A stretch of 64,000 nt of DNA, taken from sequence record NC_054917.1; one strand, written 5' to 3'. This document shows positions 2,854 to 59,443 of this stretch, piece after piece (position 1 is the first letter of the stretch; every line of letters begins with the position of its first letter). The translations under genes were made by a program, and so were the position numbers. The notes under the pieces were generated by a model. It searched no databases and had not been told where the DNA came from. It worked only from the letters and a program-made list of their open reading frames with translations. Source of the stretch: Escherichia phage vB_EcoM_G50.

Positions 2854-2899
2854 AGTATTTCCTTAGGTTAATTAAGATTTAAAATCCATGAGAGTATTA

Positions 2900-3073
2900 T
2901 ACTCCGGATAGTTTGTAAACTATTTCAACATCGCCTTTTGCTGCTTTATAACCTTCAGCCCAAGATACAACCGAGTTTTTATCTGAAGATTCAAATTCTG
3001 GCATTGGACTTTCATCAATGTTCACACAGTATGTTTCTTCATTTTCGTCAAACCAAATAGTTAAAGTAGTCAT
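2900..3073 (-). CDS. small hypothetical protein (~57 aa)
   Basis: ATG at 3071-3073 preceded by GGAGAAATAAATG; acidic product MTTLTIWFDENEETYCVNIDES...; below the ORF-track size cutoff. Confidence 0.3.
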
Positions 3074-3141
3074 TTATTTCTCCGCTTCTGTGATTGTTTT
3101 GATAAGTCTATAATAACACCGTCCTTGGTGTTTGTACACAC

Positions 3142-3417
3142 TTATTTCATATTATTGAAATATTCTTCTGCGATTTCATCGTTATCGTGGTAAACTTTAG
3201 AAGACAGTTTAACATAACCTTCAGCAGTGAACATATTAATCACAACTTTTACAGTATACCACTGACCGTCTTCATTACCCATTACTGCGTAAGTTTCAAA
3301 CATCAGATGGTCAGGACCGATAACTTTAATATCATTCACTGTACGACCGAAATCTTCTGAAACGCATTTCATAAAGAAGTTGAACAGTTCGCCGTAATTA
3401 TCCATTTCATTCTCCAA
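3142..3417 (-). CDS. hypothetical protein (91 aa)
   Basis: ORF with early-promoter-like module immediately upstream. Confidence 0.5.
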   Translation of the reverse strand: MENEMDNYGELFNFFMKCVSEDFGRTVNDIKVIGPDHLMFETYAVMGNEDGQWYTVKVVINMFTAEGYVKLSSKVYHDNDEIAEEYFNNMK

Positions 3418-3440
3418 GTTGTTTTCTGTATCAGTAGTTG

Positions 3441-3500
3441 ATAGTTGTATAGTACCACGGAAGAACAGAGATGTAAACAGTTTTGTGAAAAATTTTTTAA
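3441..3500 (-). promoter_or_regulatory. sigma70-type early promoter module (copy 1)
   Basis: Minus strand reads ttcacaaaactGTTTACatctctgttcttccgTGgTACTATAc; -35 GTTTAC and extended -10; shares flanking words with copies at 7585-7640 and 7945-8000. Confidence 0.5.
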
Positions 3501-3644
3501 AAAGTTTTAGGGAATTCTAGGGAAGGGAGGGGCAATTAAAGGATAGGATAATATATTATAAAGGGTAGAAACTAAATGATGCCTAGAGAGGTCCAGAAAG
3601 GCCTAGATGCCAAAAAGCCCTATCATTTAGATAGGGATTTAAAA

Positions 3645-4208
3645 TTATTTATCTAGTTTAGTTATTATAGCTTCTACGGCAGCTTTTAGCTTAGATGCGG
3701 TGTTAATACGATTTTTAATTTCAGTATACGCATCGCCAAGAACATCAAGGCTATCAGAATAAACACTTACACTATTGCGTTCGCTATTTGAAATAGAACC
3801 TTTAGTTTTACGATCAAAATCGGTGTACACGTCTTGAAGATCACGCGCTGCCTTCTTTGCATCATCCAATGCATCAAGAGCTTTATTCAAAGCATTAACG
3901 TATTTTTTAGTGTCGAACATATTCTTAGAAATTTTAGCAGGTGCACGTTCAGGAGTAGCTAATACAGATTTAGGAACCTGAGCGCCAGATGCCAATTTCT
4001 TAGAAATTTTGAAAAACGCTTTATTGAATTTATTTTCTTGACTCATCGTAAAAGAACTATTATCGATGTTGTACATTTCAATAGCTTTAGCTTTCCACTT
4101 AAGAAAATCGCCGCGGTCTTTTGGGTCCAAGTGGAAAAATACTTTAGTAAGATCTGCTTCAGATGGTAATTTTGCTGCTTCGGTTAAAAATTCGGCATAG
4201 GTTTTCAT
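3645..4208 (-). CDS. internal-protein-like head protein (IPIII-like, 187 aa)
   Basis: N-terminus MKTYAEFLTEA matches recalled T4 internal-protein capsid-targeting leader with L-x-E gp21 cleavage site; lysine-rich. Confidence 0.6.
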   Translation of the reverse strand: MKTYAEFLTEAAKLPSEADLTKVFFHLDPKDRGDFLKWKAKAIEMYNIDNSSFTMSQENKFNKAFFKISKKLASGAQVPKSVLATPERAPAKISKNMFDTKKYVNALNKALDALDDAKKAARDLQDVYTDFDRKTKGSISNSERNSVSVYSDSLDVLGDAYTEIKNRINTASKLKAAVEAIITKLDK

Positions 4209-4300
4209 TTAAAATCCTTGAAATAATTTATCGGTTGGTTATTAATTATTTATTACTTTGTTATTATCCGTAACAGCATTCTCTATGTGATTCAAACTAA

Positions 4301-4325
4301 AAACCCCAACCTTTCGGTCGGGGCT
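4301..4325 (-). terminator. stem-loop GCCCCGACCGAAAGGTTGGGG plus U-tract
   Basis: Hairpin directly 3' of ORF 4333..4806; near-identical copy at 4859-4885. Confidence 0.6.
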
Positions 4326-4332
4326 AAGAATG

Positions 4333-4806
4333 TTATTTGATTTGTTTAGCAGACCAAATGCGGTCTTTGATGATTTTTTGAATGTCTTCAACATACTCTA
4401 GGTCATGAGCATGTGGGTTATCTTTGAAACTATAAGCACGAGCTAGTTTTTGGCCTTCAGTTTTGATTACTAAAAGCTCTTTAAGGATAGCTTCATATTT
4501 AGCGATAATTCCTTTAACAATATTTTTTTCTTGTGCAGCTTTAGGATCTGCTTTAGGAGCAGGTTTACCCGAAGCCTTTGCAAAAGCAGCACCAGTAGCA
4601 ACTAAACTTTTCCAGGCCATACTAACCGCATTTCCTGTAAATCCTTCTGCTTTCATGTCGCGAGCAAACTGGAATCGTGATTCGTCAGAAGCATCTTTAT
4701 AGGAATATTTACCCGCTGCAATGGCTGCTTTTGCGACAGCTTGAATTTCGGTGCTAGATGCTTCATTTAACACCGCTTCATTTAAAAATTGAGCATATGA
4801 TTTCAT
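4333..4806 (-). CDS. internal-protein-like head protein (IPII-like, 157 aa)
   Basis: N-terminus MKSYAQFLNEA (capsid-targeting-like leader, L-x-E site); late promoter TATAAATA just upstream. Confidence 0.6.
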   Translation of the reverse strand: MKSYAQFLNEAVLNEASSTEIQAVAKAAIAAGKYSYKDASDESRFQFARDMKAEGFTGNAVSMAWKSLVATGAAFAKASGKPAPKADPKAAQEKNIVKGIIAKYEAILKELLVIKTEGQKLARAYSFKDNPHAHDLEYVEDIQKIIKDRIWSAKQIK

Positions 4807-4846
4807 CTTATTTCCTGTTTTAATTCGTGGATTTAATATACTACTA

Positions 4847-4854
4847 TATTTATA
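4847..4854 (-). promoter_or_regulatory. T4 late promoter TATAAATA
   Basis: Plus strand tatttata = minus-strand TATAAATA about 40 nt upstream of ORF 4333..4806. Confidence 0.6.
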
Positions 4855-4858
4855 CTAA

Positions 4859-4885
4859 AAAGCCCCAACCTTTCGGTCGGGGCTA
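4859..4885 (-). terminator. stem-loop GCCCCGACCGAAAGGTTGGGGC plus U-tract (repeat copy)
   Basis: About 33 bp nearly identical to 4293-4328; lies 3' of the structured region 4886-5195. Confidence 0.6.
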
Positions 4886-5195
4886 AGCCTTGCGGCAACC
4901 TTGTCGGGGTTCCACCTGCTAAGGCAAGTGTTTGTACGAAACGCCGGGATTCGAACCCGGTTATTAAGCAGTTGACGCTACTTAATATTTTTAAAAGGCC
5001 ATATCTCGACCATATCCGAACGTTCCGTCAAAAACGCTACTCGGCTTACGGCAAAGATATTTCCTCGAATCGATAATTCGGTGCGCCGTTTCTGCTGTGA
5101 TGTAAGAGGGCATCAACAAATCATAAAGATTTATTAACACAATTCCTTACCCAGGGAACATCAGTCCGACGACTTACCGGTAGCGACCCGGTTTC
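4886..5195 (-). ncRNA. candidate structured stable RNA
   Basis: About 310 nt with no ORF of 60 aa or more, downstream of the tRNA operon; minus strand has a tRNA T-arm-like CCGGGTTCGAATCCCGG and several GC hairpins; ends at a terminator. Confidence 0.3.
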
Positions 5196-5546
5196 TTAAT
5201 ATTCTTTTAAAGCATCAATCTGTTCACGACGTTTACGCCATAAATCAATTGCTTCATACGCAGATTCAGCATTTCGAATTGGACGGCATTTATATAAAGA
5301 CTTGTGATTTTGATATTGCGTAGATAACGGAATTTTATCTAAAAGGTCTTTACGTTCAAAGTATTCGTAACCATCTAAGCCAAATGAACGATTTTTGAGA
5401 AATTGCCAATGACCAAATTCGTTTTGAATATAAATATAATCCGCGTGTTGATAAAGTAAATTAATTTCACGAAATGAGATATGTTTTTCATATTCATTGA
5501 AGTAAAATGTTAAATCATGAACTACTAAATAAACATTACCTTTCAT
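5196..5546 (-). CDS. hypothetical protein (116 aa)
   Basis: ORF directly 3' of tRNA-Arg on the same strand; no recognised motif. Confidence 0.45.
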   Translation of the reverse strand: MKGNVYLVVHDLTFYFNEYEKHISFREINLLYQHADYIYIQNEFGHWQFLKNRSFGLDGYEYFERKDLLDKIPLSTQYQNHKSLYKCRPIRNAESAYEAIDLWRKRREQIDALKEY

Positions 5547-5565
5547 ATTTTCCTCACTTATAATT

Positions 5566-5641
5566 GGTCGAGGCAGTAGGGATCGAACCTACGACCTAGG
5601 ACTTAGAAGGTCCTTGCTCTTCCTTCTGAGCTATGCCCCGT
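5566..5641 (-). tRNA. tRNA-Arg (UCU)
   Basis: Cloverleaf; acceptor CGGGGCA/TGCCTCG; anticodon loop CTTCTAA; T-loop GGTTCGATCC; CCA encoded. Confidence 0.85.
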
Positions 5642-5645
5642 AATT

Positions 5646-5721
5646 GGGGTGACCGATGGGAGTCGAACCCATGACTACGAGAATCACAATCTTGAGTTCT
5701 ACCAACTGAACTACGGCCACA
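5646..5721 (-). tRNA. tRNA-His (GUG), tentative
   Basis: Acceptor GTGGCCG/CGGTCAC, discriminator C, CCA encoded; anticodon loop TTGTGAT; one A-C mismatch in anticodon stem; no encoded G-1. Confidence 0.6.
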
Positions 5722-5835
5722 TTAATACCTACTCCAACAATCAAGATGTCTTCACACGAAATTAAGAGAAGAGTGATCAGTTCAACCCCGATAATCGCGT
5801 CAAGTAGATATTAATGTGACAACTGTCACAAATTT
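5722..5835 (-). ncRNA. candidate small RNA in tRNA-cluster gap
   Basis: 113-nt gap between tRNA-Asn and tRNA-His; contains palindrome GTGACAGTTGTCAC; no ORF; no folding done. Confidence 0.2.
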
Positions 5836-5910
5836 GGCGGACGTGATAGGATTCGAACCTATAACCAATCGCTTAACAGGCGATCGCTCTGCCATTGAGC
5901 TACACATCCA
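5836..5910 (-). tRNA. tRNA-Asn (GUU)
   Basis: Acceptor GGATGTG/CACGTCC; anticodon loop CTGTTAA; T-arm ATAGGTTCGAATCCTAT; CCA encoded. Confidence 0.8.
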
Positions 5911-5914
5911 AATT

Positions 5915-6001
5915 GGTGGGGAGTGATGGAGTCGAACCACCCGAGTCGCAATGACAATGGATTTACAGTCCACACCGCTACCTCTACGGGATAACTCCCC
6001 T
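5915..6001 (-). tRNA. tRNA-Tyr (GUA), long variable arm
   Basis: 87 nt; acceptor GGGGAGT/ACTCCCC; anticodon stem-loop GTGGA-CTGTAAA-TCCAT; CCA encoded. Confidence 0.8.
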
Positions 6002-6014
6002 TAATTCTTAATTT

Positions 6015-6089
6015 GGTGGCCCTGGGTGGAATTGAACCACCATCTGGCGATTATGAGTCGCTTGCTTGAACCTTCCAGCTACAGGGCCT
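6015..6089 (-). tRNA. tRNA with CAU anticodon (Ile2 or Met)
   Basis: Acceptor GGCCCTG/CAGGGCC; anticodon loop CTCATAA; T-arm GTGGTTCAATTCCAC; CCA encoded. Confidence 0.75.
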
Positions 6090-6090
6090 T

Positions 6091-6166
6091 GGTGCTGATT
6101 GACGGAATCGAACCGCCGACCTTCTCATTACAAGTGAGTTGCTCTACCTACTAAGCTAAATCAGCA
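6091..6166 (-). tRNA. tRNA-Thr (UGU)
   Basis: GCTGATTTAGCTTAGTAGGTAGAGCAACTCACTTGTAATGAG...; anticodon loop CTTGTAA; CCA encoded. Confidence 0.9.
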
Positions 6167-6171
6167 AAACT

Positions 6172-6261
6172 GGCGGAGGCGATAGGATTTGAACCTATGA
6201 GTCGCCGGAGCGACTGCCGGTTTTCAAGACCGGTGCATTAAACCACTCTGCCACGCCTCCA
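6172..6261 (-). tRNA. tRNA-Ser (UGA), long variable arm
   Basis: 90 nt; acceptor GGAGGCG/CGCCTCC; anticodon stem-loop CCGGT-CTTGAAA-ACCGG; CCA encoded. Confidence 0.85.
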
Positions 6262-6263
6262 GT

Positions 6264-6337
6264 CTCCATACAAGGATTTGAACCTTGGACCTCCTGATCC
6301 CAAATCAGGCGCTCTACCAAACTGAGCTACACGGAGT
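6264..6337 (-). tRNA. tRNA-Pro (UGG), no encoded CCA
   Basis: Acceptor CTCCGTG/TATGGAG; anticodon stem-loop CCTGA-TTTGGGA-TCAGG; 2 nt from tRNA-Ser. Confidence 0.8.
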
Positions 6338-6346
6338 AAATTAAAT

Positions 6347-6421
<75 letters not shown>

Positions 6422-6426
6422 AATTT

Positions 6427-6513
6427 GGTGCGAGAAGTGGGACTCGAACCCACAAGGAAATCATTCCGCAGCATTTTAAGTGCTGTGCCTTTACCAATTT
6501 GACCATTCTCGCG
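6427..6513 (-). tRNA. tRNA-Leu (UAA), long variable arm
   Basis: 87 nt; acceptor GCGAGAA/TTCTCGC; anticodon stem-loop CAGCA-CTTAAAA-TGCTG; CCA encoded. Confidence 0.85.
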
Positions 6514-6514
6514 C

Positions 6515-6587
6515 TGGGAATAAAGGACTCGAACCTTTGCATCCTGGAATCAAAATCCAGTGCCTTACCAACTTGGCTAATTCCCAA
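6515..6587 (-). tRNA. tRNA-Gln (UUG), no encoded CCA
   Basis: Acceptor TGGGAAT/ATTCCCA; anticodon stem-loop CTGGA-TTTTGAT-TCCAG; 1 nt from tRNA-Leu. Confidence 0.8.
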
Positions 6588-6683
6588 TTATTAACAAAGG
6601 CTCTCAAGCAAGAACCCTTGATGATAGAGGGTATTAATCAGTGCGATATGAGTTAATAATAACAAATAATTCTTAAAGCATAT

Positions 6684-6971
6684 TTACCATTTATGATAAT
6701 ACATATTTACGATGCATTCAAGACCCAAAGGATTCTTGAAAATATCATATTCAAGAGGACCTTTTTCCGTTTCAATAAAGAAATCAAAATTTACTGTATT
6801 AAATTTACGGTCTTCCTTCACTAATTTAACTTGAGAAGATGAACGATCAATGTAAACCTTTTCAACTTCAAAACATGTTAAAATGCCATAATCATCAATC
6901 AAGGCTTTAGCTGCTTCTTGATCATATTTATATCCATTTTCAATGGATGATACTTTCGCATAAAGAATCAT
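6684..6971 (-). CDS. hypothetical protein (95 aa)
   Basis: ORF between tRNA cluster and ipI; no recognised motif. Confidence 0.5.
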   Translation of the reverse strand: MILYAKVSSIENGYKYDQEAAKALIDDYGILTCFEVEKVYIDRSSSQVKLVKEDRKFNTVNFDFFIETEKGPLEYDIFKNPLGLECIVNMYYHKW

Positions 6972-6973
6972 TA

Positions 6974-7378
6974 TTAACCTTTATCAACAATAGTATGTGT
7001 ATGGGCATTTACGATTTGCCACCAGTCAAAACTATCGCCAAATCGTTTTGATTTATTGTCTTCAATAATTTGGCGTAATTCATCTTCTGTTTCAGCATAC
7101 GCAATCAAATCATCATATCCACCGCAAGGATAGTAATTATCGCCTGCGAACAAAAGAAAATTTACTTTAGATGGGTCTACATAATAATGCTCTTTAGGAT
7201 ATTTAGTTCCTTTCCAATCAGTTACTTCAACATAACGATAAGAAAATCCATTTTTACTTTCAACCCAACTCCACGCTTCAAAAGGAGTATTAAAAACTCT
7301 ATCAGGTATTAAATTACCTTCAAAATGAGAAGGATTTGCATAATCCCCAGCATAAACATAATATTCGTTAATATTCAT
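6974..7378 (-). CDS. hypothetical protein (134 aa), Tyr/Trp-rich
   Basis: ORF tightly packed with neighbours; no recognised motif. Confidence 0.5.
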   Translation of the reverse strand: MNINEYYVYAGDYANPSHFEGNLIPDRVFNTPFEAWSWVESKNGFSYRYVEVTDWKGTKYPKEHYYVDPSKVNFLLFAGDNYYPCGGYDDLIAYAETEDELRQIIEDNKSKRFGDSFDWWQIVNAHTHTIVDKG

Positions 7379-7564
7379 TTATTCACCTTTAGAAATTTTA
7401 TCCATAACAATAGCGATTAAACCAATTAAAAATGCTACTACAAGTGAAAAAACATTTTCTGCTGTAGTCAATAATCCACATATAAATCCAACAAACATTG
7501 AAAAACTAAAAGCAGAAGCAGAAATTGCAATAGCAACATTTCGAATTAATTCACAACGTTTCAT
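7379..7564 (-). CDS. small hydrophobic membrane protein (61 aa)
   Basis: ORF with two hydrophobic stretches (VAIAISASAFSFSMFVGFICGLL, VVAFLIGLIAIV); early promoter module upstream. Confidence 0.45.
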   Translation of the reverse strand: MKRCELIRNVAIAISASAFSFSMFVGFICGLLTTAENVFSLVVAFLIGLIAIVMDKISKGE

Positions 7565-7584
7565 TTTATTCTCCTCAGTAGTTG

Positions 7585-7640
7585 ATAGGGTAATAGTATC
7601 ACAACTAAAACCCTATGTAAACAACTTTGTGAAATATTTA
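7585..7640 (-). promoter_or_regulatory. sigma70-type early promoter module (copy 2)
   Basis: Minus strand tttcacaaagttGTTTACatagggttttagttgTGaTACTATTaccctat; inverted repeat TAGGGT/ACCCTA brackets the -10. Confidence 0.5.
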
Positions 7641-7928
7641 TTACAAAAGATTTTTAGCAATAATCTTGAGATGTGCCGCAGAAATGTGTTTAGCTTTAAA
7701 CAACGCAGTTTCTTCAGCAGGAGAGATAATGATTGTAGCACCATCCTTTTTAGCAGACCACCCATCACCTAGGTAAACAGTACCTTTGATTTCTTCGCCA
7801 TCAACCAAACTAATCATTGGTTTACCTTCTCGTCCTTTATTTGCTTTAATAACTTCAGAAGTAAGAGTAGCTTCAGTAATAGTAGAAACCGGGGTAGTTG
7901 TAGAAGTAAATTCTTTGAAAGTTTTCAT
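7641..7928 (-). CDS. ipI: internal protein I (IPI) precursor
   Basis: 95-aa product MKTFKEFTSTTTPVSTITEATLTSEVIKANKGREGKPMISLVDGEEIKG... matches recalled T4 IPI. Confidence 0.85.
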   Translation of the reverse strand: MKTFKEFTSTTTPVSTITEATLTSEVIKANKGREGKPMISLVDGEEIKGTVYLGDGWSAKKDGATIIISPAEETALFKAKHISAAHLKIIAKNLL

Positions 7929-7944
7929 TTTATTTTCCTAATTA

Positions 7945-8000
7945 ATTTTGATGAGATAATAGTATCACTACCTCATCAACGTGTAAACAACTTTGTGAAA
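7945..8000 (-). promoter_or_regulatory. sigma70-type early promoter module (copy 3)
   Basis: Minus strand tttcacaaagttGTTTACacgttgatgaggtagTGaTACTATTatctcatcaa; inverted repeat TTGATGAG/CTCATCAA brackets the -10. Confidence 0.5.
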
Positions 8001-8697
<697 letters not shown>

Positions 8698-57346: not shown

Positions 57347-59443
57347 TTATCCTTGAACGAACTTGTAAGGCATGTTTGTAATATCTATGCAAGACGCAAT
57401 AATTCCAAGAGATGATTCTACTTTCTGTTTAACATTTGATGAAACAAACGATGCAAAGTCAACTCTGTCTTCTATTTCAATATCATCTGTCATTGCAACT
57501 ACTTCACCGGTTTCCATTAGACGGTCACCGTCATAAATGACTGATTCGGTGAGCTCTTCTGTAGTCATAACTTCAGCTTGAATGAGTTTTGTATTATTAG
57601 ATGTTGTTCCGTCATTATTAGAAGCATCAGTTATTTTATTAACTTTGACCATCAATCCGCGTGGTAGAATAACTTCAGCTTCTGTTGCTATTCCGAGACT
57701 TCCTGGATATACAACATTAACTTTATGAGCTCCATCAATTGCCCATCCTATTTGAACTTTAACGTATTCAGGATTTTCTTTATACGCTCTTATTTCGTTT
57801 GGATTAATAGTTATTCCTTCTTCATTTTTATCAACTGTTAATTCATTACGAGCTTCTGGTTCTAAAAGACCAATACCAGCATGCGTAATTCCAAAACGTC
57901 CAAAAATGATAGGAGTTAAAGAAGTAGATACAAAATTTCTGAAATAGAACACTTTATTTTTAACTAGCGCTTCGTATATAGGAGCAGTCATACTTTGAGC
58001 ACGATAAACTGTAATGCCTTCTGGTATACGGTCACCATTTTCAAAAGCTGAATCTAAATTATTTATCGCAGATTCAATTTCTTTTTCACTCATTACATCA
58101 TATCGTTCTGGATTGTAGCGGCCTAAAAGAAGATTATTGATGTCAGTATATCCTGATCCACAATACTCTCTAATGCCGCGCTTTTGTGATGGAGTATATT
58201 TAGAACCATCACGGGCAATAGTAATATCAATCATTGGACCTGCACCAATTCCAGAAAAGCTATAAATCATTCGTTTGAGGAATTTAGTTTTTGCTGCGTT
58301 CCAGGAATTTTTAGTTATTTCTTCCCAGACTTCATCTGGCTGTCCTTTACGGGTTTTATTATGTTTATCAAGCCAATTATCTTTATATTCTTCAAAGAAT
58401 TGATTAACAGCTGCTGCGTATTTCTCTAAACATTTTATTGAAGTGGTTGGTTCATTTTTAATCGCATTAAGAATTACATCTTTAATTTTTTCAGAAACTT
58501 CATTAACCTCACTTTTTGAAAAGAATTTATAGTCATAGTGAAGTTCATCTGCGGTTCCTTCGGCAATGATTTTTGCTGCCTTAGTTTTAGAAGCTAATGA
58601 ATTAATTCCAAGCTTCATTTCTTCTGCTTCGGGAATTAAAGGAGCTGTAGCAGGTTTATTGAAATTAGCTGCGGTAGATTCATATTTCTGGAATAATTCA
58701 CTTTCAAATCTAGAAGATTCCAATGACTGACTTTGCGCAATTGCTCTACGGGAAATTTTAACTTTAACGATTACAGCTTGGTCAGAACGTTTATCGTTTT
58801 CTTGCGCAATAGATGCCGCAATTGCCTCATTTTTAGTTACTTGAGCTCCAGTATCTTTATTGATATAAACATCGCCGACTTTCGATTCAACTTTAGTAAA
58901 GAGCTCGGTACTAATTTCCGGAACTCCTGGAATGTCTTCTAGTGATACATTTTTGCGATGTATAAGAATATATGCATACTTTTTATCGTAATCCCAGAGT
59001 TCCTTAAGAAGGACGTATCTGCCACCTGAACGACTGCGGATAAGTCTATCAGCAATAACTTGAATTTGTCGAGCTTGACCAGCAGTTTTAGACTTAAGAA
59101 TACGAAGCATACAGGCATCAATTTTATACTGACGCATCGTTTGCATCGCAACAGTAAAAACTGAATTGATGTAATTAATTGGGCTTGGACCGAGACCTTT
59201 CAATTTAGCAATTGAACCTTTAGCAGTTAATGTAAAAGGAACAATGTGCATCATTTTATCGCCCATCTTTAGATCACGGTTAGTATCACCTCCAGATGTA
59301 TAGGTACATAAACGAAAGCCTGGTTGTTCAATTGCGTCATCAACATGAACTGAAAAAATTTGCGGTATTTTCTTCTTTGGATTTAAGTTTGTAATCGGAA
59401 GAGTAGTATCTTCGTCAAATAATTCTGTAATGAGTTCCATCAT
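57347..59443 (-). CDS. alt: NAD-protein ADP-ribosyltransferase Alt (head-packaged, injected)
   Basis: 698 aa; MMELITELFDEDTTLPITNLNPKKKIPQIFSVHVDD... matches recalled T4 Alt; motifs R, FVSTSL, EAEVILPRG. Confidence 0.85.
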   Translation of the reverse strand: MMELITELFDEDTTLPITNLNPKKKIPQIFSVHVDDAIEQPGFRLCTYTSGGDTNRDLKMGDKMMHIVPFTLTAKGSIAKLKGLGPSPINYINSVFTVAMQTMRQYKIDACMLRILKSKTAGQARQIQVIADRLIRSRSGGRYVLLKELWDYDKKYAYILIHRKNVSLEDIPGVPEISTELFTKVESKVGDVYINKDTGAQVTKNEAIAASIAQENDKRSDQAVIVKVKISRRAIAQSQSLESSRFESELFQKYESTAANFNKPATAPLIPEAEEMKLGINSLASKTKAAKIIAEGTADELHYDYKFFSKSEVNEVSEKIKDVILNAIKNEPTTSIKCLEKYAAAVNQFFEEYKDNWLDKHNKTRKGQPDEVWEEITKNSWNAAKTKFLKRMIYSFSGIGAGPMIDITIARDGSKYTPSQKRGIREYCGSGYTDINNLLLGRYNPERYDVMSEKEIESAINNLDSAFENGDRIPEGITVYRAQSMTAPIYEALVKNKVFYFRNFVSTSLTPIIFGRFGITHAGIGLLEPEARNELTVDKNEEGITINPNEIRAYKENPEYVKVQIGWAIDGAHKVNVVYPGSLGIATEAEVILPRGLMVKVNKITDASNNDGTTSNNTKLIQAEVMTTEELTESVIYDGDRLMETGEVVAMTDDIEIEDRVDFASFVSSNVKQKVESSLGIIASCIDITNMPYKFVQG

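Follow-up and report, generated by a model that had tools for sequence, protein, structure and literature searches.

Three segments on the minus strand of the window, the whole 64,000-nucleotide stretch of phage DNA analysed here, are very probably sigma-70 early promoters that belong to a dispersed family of cassettes, that in two cases also encode a hairpin carried by read-through RNA, and that double as crossover points for internal-protein genes. The window is Tequatrovirus DNA, 99% identical to phage REP4, with a gene order syntenic with that of T4. Each segment displays the pattern TTTCACAAA(G/A)(T/C)TGTTTACA-N17-TACTAT (n = 3) and lies upstream of a gene: e.8 (copy 1), trna.4 (copy 2) and ipI (copy 3).

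Three predicted early promoters

Copy 1, the predicted early-promoter cassette of e.8, occupies positions 3406..3490 of the minus strand. It comprises the 19-mer TTTCACAAAACTGTTTACA (3490-3472), the -35 element GTTTAC (3473..3478) and the extended -10 element TGG TACTAT (3449..3457, with TACTAT at 3454-3449), and transcription is predicted to start at the A at 3442 (+1). The e.8 homologue on the same strand spans 3142..3405, its true start being the ATG at 3405 (MDNYGELF) and not the TTG at 3417.

Copy 2 (7565..7634, minus strand) is the predicted early-promoter cassette that serves trna.4, trna.3, trna.2 and the tRNA cluster. The 19-mer TTTCACAAAGTTGTTTACA (7634-7616), the GTTTAC element (7617..7622) and the extended -10 element TGA TACTAT (7593..7601, with TACTAT at 7598-7593) precede a predicted +1 at the A at 7586. 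The trna.4 homologue (7379..7564, minus strand; 61 aa) heads the tRNA-region early operon, and tRNAs alone matched in an Rfam search.

Copy 3 (7929..8000, minus strand), the predicted early-promoter cassette of ipI, begins at the stop codon of 57B and ends just ahead of the ipI ATG. Its 19-mer (8000-7982) is identical to that of copy 2, and is followed by GTTTAC at 7983..7988, TGA TACTAT at 7959..7967 (TACTAT at 7964-7959) and a predicted +1 at the A at 7952. The gene ipI (7641..7928, minus strand) encodes internal protein I (phrog_4363 'internal virion protein', E 3.7e-48), which according to the literature is injected and inhibits GmrSD.

The presence of a common module upstream of these three genes, proposed in a preliminary description of this DNA, was confirmed. 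Allowing up to three mismatches, the 19-mer matches exactly three times in the window (two mismatches in copy 1, none in copies 2 and 3), against 0.07 expected from shuffled sequences, and none of 100 shuffles reached three matches. A repeat search likewise groups the three copies as one 54-nt family (D2), and GTTTACA-N17-TANNNT occurs five times in the 64 kb, against 0.21 expected. The motif as first written, GTTTAC-N17-TGnTACTAT, matches none of the three sites, its spacing having been miscounted; the correct form, GTTTAC-N15-TGnTACTAT (that is, TTTACA-N17-TACTAT), fits all of them. The downstream word attributed to copies 1 and 2, TATCAACTACTGA, was indeed found on the minus strand from 3443 (3431..3443) and from 7587 (7587-7575), with no other copy in the window, and covers the start site and leader.

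The promoter scan finds, in all three copies, the GTTTAC -35 element and a -10 element TAnnnT placed 17 nt from TTTACA and extended by TGn. Ahead of the -35 element, at about -40 to -60, runs an A/T-rich, UP-like stretch (AAAAAATTTTT, AATAAATATTT and TTTAAAATAATTT). The copies stand on the right strand, upstream of an early-region gene, with an SD and an ATG within about 60 nt. Start sites were placed 7 nt after the -10 element, a rule that reproduces Pe133295 as curated in the T4 record. The orthologous sites in T4 lie at 70696 (copy 1), 73572 (copy 2) and 73939 (copy 3), and in the record of Yersinia phage fPS-2, which is 99% identical here, all three sites are labelled 'predicted early promoter'.

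The T4 early consensus comprises GTTTAC at -36 to -31, an UP element, TGn, the -10 element and 'additional regions of consensus' (Hinton 2010, PMC2988021; Nolan 2006, PMC1524935). The three copies share with T4 early promoters the position of GTTTAC, the TGn, the TAnnnT -10 element, the A/T-rich upstream region, a C-rich -4 to -2, an A start, and a location on the early-gene strand followed by SD and ATG. There is no material difference, since TACTAT instead of TATAAT is likewise the -10 element of many T4 promoters. The sequence features, the T4 orthology and the fPS-2 annotation thus support the early-promoter reading that had been put forward for the modules, namely that they are T4-type early promoters of e.8, the trna.4 operon and ipI. 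Host RNA polymerase would read these sigma-70-dependent promoters straight after infection, from about 3442 into e.8, from about 7586 into the trna.4-trna.3-trna.2-tRNA operon and from about 7952 into ipI.

A dispersed cassette family and gene shuffling

The three copies are not a private trio, and their family is the general T4 early-promoter family. A scan of T4 for GTTTAC-N17-19-TAnnnT yielded 43 sites; 40 lie on the early-gene strand, and one of the sites is Pe133295. Primary lists of T4 early promoters are reportedly those of Liebig and Rueger (1989), Wilkens and Rueger, and Miller (2003). The longer word TCACAAA[AG][CT][TG]GTTTAC occurs eight times in T4, always on the minus strand and always at early sites of the GTTTAC type; TATCAACTACTGA occurs six times, also on the minus strand only, and in five of the six cases immediately after an early -10 element. 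Seven family members align across about 95 nt with 73% column identity, and copy 1 is a member of this dispersed repeat sub-family. The three copies thus belong to paralogous promoter-plus-leader cassettes dispersed throughout T4-type genomes.

The cassettes preferentially adjoin variable accessory ORFs and show recombination between copies. The ORF of ipI has a conserved N-terminal leader (MKTFKEF...) and an early-promoter block on each side, and relatives carry other MKT(Y/F)(Q/K)EF ORFs between the same promoter blocks. The interval between 57B and trna.4 contains, in different relatives, one internal-protein gene, a different one, two, or at least two, each with a cassette ahead of it, and ipI is kept between conserved flanks in only 168 of the 733 matching phage records. 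In one case (L017), the upstream flank of copy 3 is joined to the core of copy 2. These comparative data, from mosaic relatives and from ipI retention counts, bear out the portability that had been suggested for the cassettes.

Near-identical direct repeats on either side of small accessory genes indicate that the cassettes are also used for crossovers, by which internal-protein genes would be deleted, swapped or added. A 696-bp ipIII deletion with a TATATT minihomology has been described in T4 (Wu 2021), and in T4 the two cassettes on either side of ipIII have their -10 boxes exactly 696 bp apart. The distance of the 689-bp ipIII deletion from the same study (CACAATT) was not reproduced, the two CACAATT sites being 698 bp apart.

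Functional convergence would account for the likeness differently: strong early promoters must look alike, so that the copies would not be portable units and recombination between them would be incidental. The invariant blocks do coincide with RNA-polymerase contacts (-35, TGn, -10 and the upstream region), and T4 joins DNA at minihomologies of 3-13 nt throughout its genome, so the cassettes may be convenient rather than specialised crossover points. However, the likeness exceeds the polymerase contacts, extending over the 95-nt alignment and including a transcribed leader of about 40 nt common to five T4 promoters, while other T4 early promoters function even though their upstream and leader sequences are quite unlike these. 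Together with the finding of the same core on different flanks in relatives, and of an ipIII deletion endpoint within the cassettes, this makes convergence unlikely as the explanation.

Hairpins enclosing the -10 element

Short inverted repeats had been described around the -10 element of copies 2 and 3; they are real and do bracket it, but are longer than first stated. In copy 2, the left arm ATAGGGT (7610..7616, minus strand) pairs with the right arm ACCCTAT (7585..7591, minus strand), with an additional inner TAG(T)/(A)CTA. In copy 3, the left arm TTGATGAGGTA (7969..7979, minus strand), within the promoter spacer, and the right arm TATCTCATCAA (7948..7958, minus strand), over the start-site region, form 11 pairs including one G.T; the T4 counterparts of these arms, TGATGAGGTA/TACCTCATCA, form 10 perfect pairs. 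The hairpin overlaps the promoter in both copies, from the spacer to +8. The spacer and the start-site region, the two promoter parts whose sequence is free, can pair with each other, and this places the -10 box in the hairpin loop. The predicted RNA folds reach -18.8 kcal/mol in copy 2 (z -3.1) and -15.5 kcal/mol in copy 3 (z -2.6). No hairpin is found in the RNA fold of copy 1 (-3.3 kcal/mol, z +0.6), and 'promoter plus stem-loop' therefore fits only two of the three copies.

The arrangement recurs in T4: of 40 early promoters, 17 enclose the -10 element between perfectly paired arms 6 bp or more in length, compared with 3.5 for permuted partners (maximum of 10 in 2000 permutations) and 2.4 for shuffles. 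Independently, 45 promoter contexts from IMG/VR include 16 with a repeat of 6 bp or longer (against 4.1) and eight with one of 8 bp or longer (against 0.73), and the MFE is -11.1 against -6.9. A first IMG/VR scan, with a 17-mer, gave mostly chance matches within ORFs of unrelated phages and was set aside.

Arm sequences are unrelated from promoter to promoter. Among orthologous trna.4 promoters the hairpin is kept across three different arm arrangements, with changes that include GGGT/ACCC to GGGCT/AGCCC, as well as G.U pairs. In T4, the sense strand gives more stable folds than the antisense strand, in excess of the permuted control; in the IMG/VR set this bias amounts to about 2 sd only, with the invariant core controlled for. 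The comparison of sense and antisense stability is suggestive as to whether the structure acts in RNA or in DNA.

It is proposed, tentatively and as a doubtful generalization, that selection for structure has made hairpins with the -10 element in the loop a general trait of T4-type early promoters, shared by about 40% of them and extending beyond the internal-protein loci. The spacer and the start-site region would be reused to form the two arms, in an RNA hairpin present only on read-through. In the literature searched, which did not reach the older T4 literature, there was no statement of this hairpin as a feature of the whole class. The statistics showing that it is class-wide and conserved as a structure are a possible addition to knowledge.

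Relation to described elements

The proposal that cassettes of promoter and stem-loop drive gene shuffling in T4-type genomes has a literature behind it, which covers the ipI locus: the cassettes and their shuffling role are already described (Repoila 1994, EMBO J 13:4181; Arbiol 2010, PMC2839356; Comeau 2014, PMC4122927). By the account of Arbiol 2010, Repoila 1994 reported PeSL-like elements at both T-even internal-protein loci, built on T4 early promoters and with weaker, AT-rich stem-loops of variable size; Arbiol 2010 terms them analogues, not homologues, of PeSLs. As far as that account goes, copies 3 and 2 agree with these elements in that they lie on both sides of ipI, at one of the two classical loci, and have at the promoter a stem-loop that is weak, AT-rich and variable in size, whereas copy 1, ahead of e.8, is not at an internal-protein gene and has no stem-loop.

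Modular shuffling by PeSLs has been proposed and in part demonstrated (Arbiol 2010; Comeau 2014), and Comeau 2014 extended PeSLs to the T4/PST pair, with TTTACW-N17-TAYWAT as the PST/T4 consensus. The present cassettes share with PeSLs a repeated early promoter, stem-loop and SD/start in hyperplastic regions beside variable small ORFs; the promoter is of the strong sigma-70 early type, AT-rich upstream, with SD and start codon at the 3' end. In contrast, the PeSL stem-loop lies upstream of the promoter, while the hairpins of copies 2 and 3 overlap it. No stem-loop is found just upstream of the promoter in any of the three copies. Copies 2 and 3 have no room for one, since the stop codons of ipI and 57B abut the upstream motif, and the hairpin nearest to copy 1, a terminator, lies about 130 nt upstream. 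The hairpin with the -10 element in its loop might take the place of the separate upstream hairpin of PeSL-type promoters; in T4 the two kinds show a complementary distribution in the expected direction that is not significant (p = 0.16).

A promoter between two arms is also described for T4 gene e and related lysis genes (Uzan and Miller 2010, PMC3014915), with the full hairpin on read-through RNA only and the 5' arm missing from the promoter's own transcript. The difference is that there the promoter is late and the hairpin hides the ribosome-binding site.

Possible roles of the hairpin

Transcripts of the promoter itself would start inside the right arm and form no hairpin, so that both arms would be present only on RNA reading through from upstream. 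On such transcripts the hairpin may act as RNA and mark the end of the upstream cistron, through 3'-end protection, pausing or attenuation, and its overlap with the promoter would follow from an intergenic space of only about 70 nt. Hiding of the ribosome-binding site on read-through RNA, as in the gene e/soc/49 model, was considered and rejected. Across the promoter class, SD accessibility on read-through RNA falls from 0.70 to 0.33, but the drop is the same with permuted, shuffled or random upstream halves (0.34-0.39), and in copies 2 and 3 the predicted accessibility stays at 0.65-0.74.

Termination or attenuation of upstream transcripts, as for PeSL stem-loops, would suit the intergenic position of the repeats and the stability and sense-strand preference of the hairpins in copies 2 and 3. 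One G/C-rich RB49 PeSL stem-loop was cloned in a lacZ reporter to test termination, and the abstract of Arbiol 2010 describes stem-loops of this kind as effective terminators. Unlike it, the hairpins of copies 2 and 3 are AT-rich and neither is followed by a T-run, so they are not intrinsic terminators; nor did the terminator scan detect them, finding only 4884-4861, 4325-4302 and 3636-3618 in the region, which leaves a termination role unsupported. Moreover, the late-promoter word TATAAATA is absent between 57B and ipI, so any late ipI transcript would need to read through copy 3. Terminators or attenuators are thus a quite improbable reading of the repeats.

A role at the DNA level, as a cruciform or a site for a structure-specific protein that either tunes promoter opening and early shut-off or stimulates recombination, is less probable again. 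The -10 box in the loop would fit it, early-promoter shut-off is unexplained according to reviews, and the variation of the arms around a constant structure is compatible with structure recognition while arguing against a sequence-specific operator. However, the G.T pairs and the greater stability of the sense strand favour RNA, and stems of only 7-11 bp, AT-rich, make cruciform extrusion unlikely.

Chance complementarity, which short, AT-rich stems might suggest, is hardly conceivable for the individual repeats, given fold z-scores of -2.6 and -3.1 and a structure conserved despite changed sequences, and is already refuted for the hairpin class as a whole, where counts and mean stem length lie above all 2000 permutations in both the T4 and the IMG/VR sets.

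Biological significance

Recognition of these cassettes is of use for annotation and for the engineering of phage host range, yet this is established knowledge. The cassettes explain how the small accessory genes of a T4-like phage are turned on within seconds of infection, and how injected internal proteins, described in the literature as inhibitors of GmrSD-type restriction enzymes, can be swapped without upsetting the neighbouring genes.

Genomic Context of the Modules

The region 3000-8400 shares 99.1% identity with Escherichia phage REP4 and is matched by more than 1100 phage records, the majority of them T4-like phages of enterobacteria. The gene order of the window is that of T4, with all genes on the minus strand: gene 1, 57A and 57B (8001-8456) are followed by ipI (7641-7928), trna.4 (7379-7564), trna.3, trna.2, a cluster of 11 tRNA genes (5565-6586), rnaD and rnaC and, further down, e.8 (3142-3405). 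PHROG matches agree with the assignment of ipI, trna.4 and e.8.

The tRNA region (5196-6586) encodes 11 tRNAs (Arg, His, Asn, Tyr, Met/Ile(CAT), Thr, Ser, Pro, Gly, Leu and Gln), compared with 8 in T4. The homing endonuclease segB is missing from it, and an unrelated ORF (5196-5546; phrog_3355, function not known) is located in the interval from tRNA-Arg to rnaD. A 16-nt inverted repeat (5718-5733/5803-5818), 94% complementary and with 69 nt separating the arms, is found in the 114 nt between tRNA-His and tRNA-Asn; it has no match among the Rfam families.

A 1.27-kb insertion with respect to T4 (3618-4887, minus strand) is placed exactly after the rnaC terminator and carries two genes resembling those of the injected internal proteins (IPs), at 4333-4806 and 3645-4208. 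Both match phrog_2280, with the N-termini MKSYAQFLNEA and MKTYAEFLTEA, respectively. The first is flanked by a 30-nt terminator hairpin repeat, 97% identical between its copies (4299-4328 and 4858-4887). This gene also has, at 4854, a late-promoter word (TATAAATA); the third terminator spans 3618-3636. Yersinia phage fPS-2 carries a single gene of this kind, with an annotated terminator on either side, and T4 carries none. The insertion has the appearance of a third polymorphic IP locus, with terminator repeats instead of promoter repeats at its boundaries.

Sequence Anatomy of the Three Modules

The three modules, all read on the minus strand, lie upstream of e.8 (copy 1, 3406-3490), trna.4 (copy 2, 7565-7634) and ipI (copy 3, 7929-8000). 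Copy 1 reads TTTCACAAAACT GTTTAC ATCTCTGTTCTTCCG TGG TACTAT ACAACTATCAACTACTGATACAG, copy 2 TTTCACAAAGTT GTTTAC ATAGGGTTTTAGTTG TGA TACTAT TACCCTATCAACTACTGAGGAG, and copy 3 TTTCACAAAGTT GTTTAC ACGTTGATGAGGTAG TGA TACTAT TATCTCATCAAAATTAATTAGG, each continuing into the leader. The existence of a shared module, as proposed in the preliminary description, is borne out by the 19-mer TTTCACAAAGTTGTTTACA, which matches only copies 1, 2 and 3 (with 2, 0 and 0 mismatches) when 0.07 matches are expected. A spacing of GTTTAC-N17-TGnTACTAT had been given for it, which matches none of the three sites; the true spacing is N15 before TGn, corresponding to the canonical 17 nt from TTTACA to TACTAT.

The pattern GTTTACA-N17-TANNNT is found five times in the 64 kb, with 0.21 matches expected. 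A further GTTTACA site on the minus strand (2891-2920) fits a loose promoter pattern, its best -10 (TATAAT) being only 13 nt from GTTTAC, too close for sigma-70. Its T4 counterpart, 69967, has normal spacing and lies upstream of e.7, in the place of which the window has an ORF of 58 aa (2897-3073).

The inverted repeats reported around the -10 of copies 2 and 3 do exist, with arms longer than originally indicated: ATAGGGT/ACCCTAT plus an inner TAG(T)/(A)CTA in copy 2, and TTGATGAGGTA/TATCTCATCAA, with one G.T pair, in copy 3. The RNA folds reach -18.8 kcal/mol (z -3.1) and -15.5 kcal/mol (z -2.6), respectively, while no hairpin is found in the fold of copy 1 (-3.3 kcal/mol, z +0.6). The downstream word TATCAACTACTGA, said to be common to copies 1 and 2, is indeed shared by them and has no other occurrence in the window.

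The Modules as Probable T4-Type Early Promoters

Reviews of T4 early promoters (PMC2988021, PMC1524935) describe a GTTTAC element spanning -36 to -31, preceded by A/T-rich DNA, then TGn and the -10, together with "additional regions of consensus". As far as sequence can tell, the three modules carry every one of these features. Scanning the whole assembled T4 genome with GTTTAC-N17-19-TAnnnT yields 43 sites. Forty lie on the early-gene strand, nearly all of them immediately 5′ of an SD-ATG. Site 133331 coincides with the early promoter Pe133295 of the T4 record, which confirms the scan and places the +1 seven nucleotides beyond the -10. The T4 counterparts of copies 1, 2 and 3 are 70696 (e.8), 73572 (trna.4) and 73939 (ipI), and in phage fPS-2, 99% identical at the locus, a "predicted early promoter" is annotated at all three positions.

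The trio belongs to a large cassette family. TCACAAA[AG][CT][TG]GTTTAC occurs eight times in T4, always on the minus strand and at early promoters (those of imm.1, 55.6, nrdC.10, e.8, trna.4, ipI, frd.3 and motA), and TATCAACTACTGA occurs six times, five of them directly 3′ of an early -10. Copy 1 and the T4 cassettes of e.8, imm.1, denB, motA, nrdC.10 and frd.3 can be aligned over about 95 nt, from around -55 to the start codon, with 73% column identity. Since this similarity runs deep into the transcribed leader, further than promoter function needs, it suggests that entire cassettes have been duplicated or converted. The imm.1 (27080) and denB (167086) cassettes of T4 have the promoter, a 40-nt leader and the first codons in common (ATGAAAATCGCT), so the duplicated unit seems to extend into the coding sequence.

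Hairpins with the -10 in the Loop

The hairpin overlapping the promoter is found across the promoter class. In 40 T4 sites, the longest perfectly complementary stretch shared by the spacer and the 22 nt that follow the -10 averages 5.6 bp, and in 17 sites it is at least 6 bp long. When the halves are re-paired among T4 promoters (2000 permutations), the mean falls to 4.05 (maximum 4.7) and the number of sites with 6 bp or more to 3.5 (maximum 10); when the right half is shuffled, 2.4 such sites are obtained. The longest T4 stems lie at IP genes or close to them, with 14 bp in the ipIII-ipII interval and 10 bp both ahead of ipI and in the ipII-denV interval; further long ones are found elsewhere, as at 57990 (13 bp) and 20612 (9 bp). 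An independent sample of 45 distinct promoter-to-gene contexts, left after filtering an IMG/VR scan with GTTTAC-N14-GTGATACTAT, has stems of at least 6 bp in 16 contexts (4.1 with permuted partners) and of at least 8 bp in 8 (0.73 with permuted partners), with a mean MFE of -11.1 versus -6.9 kcal/mol.

The conserved trait of the arms is structure, their sequences being unrelated between promoters (e.g., TGGTAGGAGC/GCTCCTACCA, CCGGAAGT/ACTTCCGG and GTTGATAGGGT/ACCCTATCAAC). Among orthologues of the trna.4 promoter, the hairpin is kept through three arm arrangements, the changes including matching insertions in both arms (GGGT/ACCC to GGGCT/AGCCC) and the replacement of A-U by G.U. The sense fold is more stable than the antisense one, by -2.65 kcal/mol in T4 (permuted, -0.98 ± 0.26) and -1.77 in IMG/VR (permuted, -1.12 ± 0.30), a bias that leans towards structure at the RNA level without proving it. 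No statement of a class-wide, structurally conserved hairpin of this kind was found in the searchable literature, which does not reach the older T4 work, and it is rather improbable that the feature is both new and functional.

Possible Role of the Hairpin

The hairpins of copies 2 and 3 are not intrinsic terminators, as no T-run follows them; the only terminators found by scan in this region are 4884-4861, 4325-4302 and 3636-3618. Nor do they mask the ipI or trna.4 ribosome-binding site, for which an SD accessibility of 0.65-0.74 is predicted on read-through RNA, and the class-wide drop in SD accessibility on such RNA is not above that given by shuffled or random upstream sequence.

The host sigma-70 polymerase would fire these promoters at infection, and the promoter's own transcript would begin within the right arm and so form no hairpin. 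Read-through RNA from upstream would hold the whole hairpin, directly 3′ of the upstream stop codon, where it might mark a cistron boundary through 3′-end protection, pausing or attenuation. Its confinement to the sole unconstrained positions of the promoter could be due to an intergenic space of about 70 nt.

A G+C-rich hairpin with a T-run, lying 13-30 nt 5′ of the -35, is seen in some T4 promoters that lack an overlapping hairpin (15288, 55384, 58780, 146875 and 163673, minus strand). This is the layout of the PeSLs (promoter-early stem-loops) of Comeau 2014 (PMC4122927). The inverse relation between overlapping and upstream hairpins in T4 is a non-significant trend (p = 0.16).

Relation to Published Elements and Shuffling of IP Genes

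A passage of Arbiol 2010 (PMC2839356) relates that Repoila 1994 saw "PeSL-like sequences" at two variable T-even IP loci, and presents these elements as analogues, not homologues, of PeSLs, made up of T4 early promoters and weaker, AT-rich stem-loops of variable size. Comeau 2014 (PMC4122927), citing back to the 1994 observation, defines the PST/T4 PeSLs as TTTACW-N17-TAYWAT with stem-loops just upstream of the promoter. The modules differ from strict PeSLs in the position of the stem-loop. Their match to the published descriptions identifies copies 3 and 2 as the IP-locus elements that flank ipI, and copy 1 is an ordinary representative of the early-promoter family. The promoter cassette is a known feature, and its observation here is confirmed.

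Between the end of 57B and the start of trna.4, T4 and the window carry ipI, one relative (locus L017) a different IP gene, another (L026) two IP genes, and three more (L030, L008 and L059) two or more; every IP gene in the compared intervals has a cassette 5′ of it. The 501-nt ipI locus is matched by 733 phage records, of which only 168 span 80% or more of its length; in the others the flanks and cassettes are kept and ipI is not. In L017, the upstream flank of copy 3 is fused to the core of copy 2, as a crossover within the 20 nt common to the two copies (ATTTCACAAAGTTGTTTACA) would produce. In a 57B-trna.4 deletion carrying a hybrid of copies 3 and 2, the join would be expected within ATTTCACAAAGTTGTTTACA or GTGATACTATTA. 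In L030, the arms are mixed.

T4 recombination at minihomologies of 3-13 nt has been shown experimentally to be UvsX-dependent, and Wu 2021 described a 696-bp CRISPR-escape deletion of ipIII in T4 at a TATATT minihomology. The two cassettes flanking ipIII (T4 66471 and 65775) each have a TATATT word in the -10 region, and these words are separated by just this length. A second deletion from that study (689 bp, CACAATT) does not fit the measured spacing of 698 bp. The L017 hybrid, the variable IP content and the ipIII deletion distance support the published proposal, mentioned in the preliminary description, that cassettes of promoter plus stem-loop may drive modular gene shuffling in T4-type genomes.
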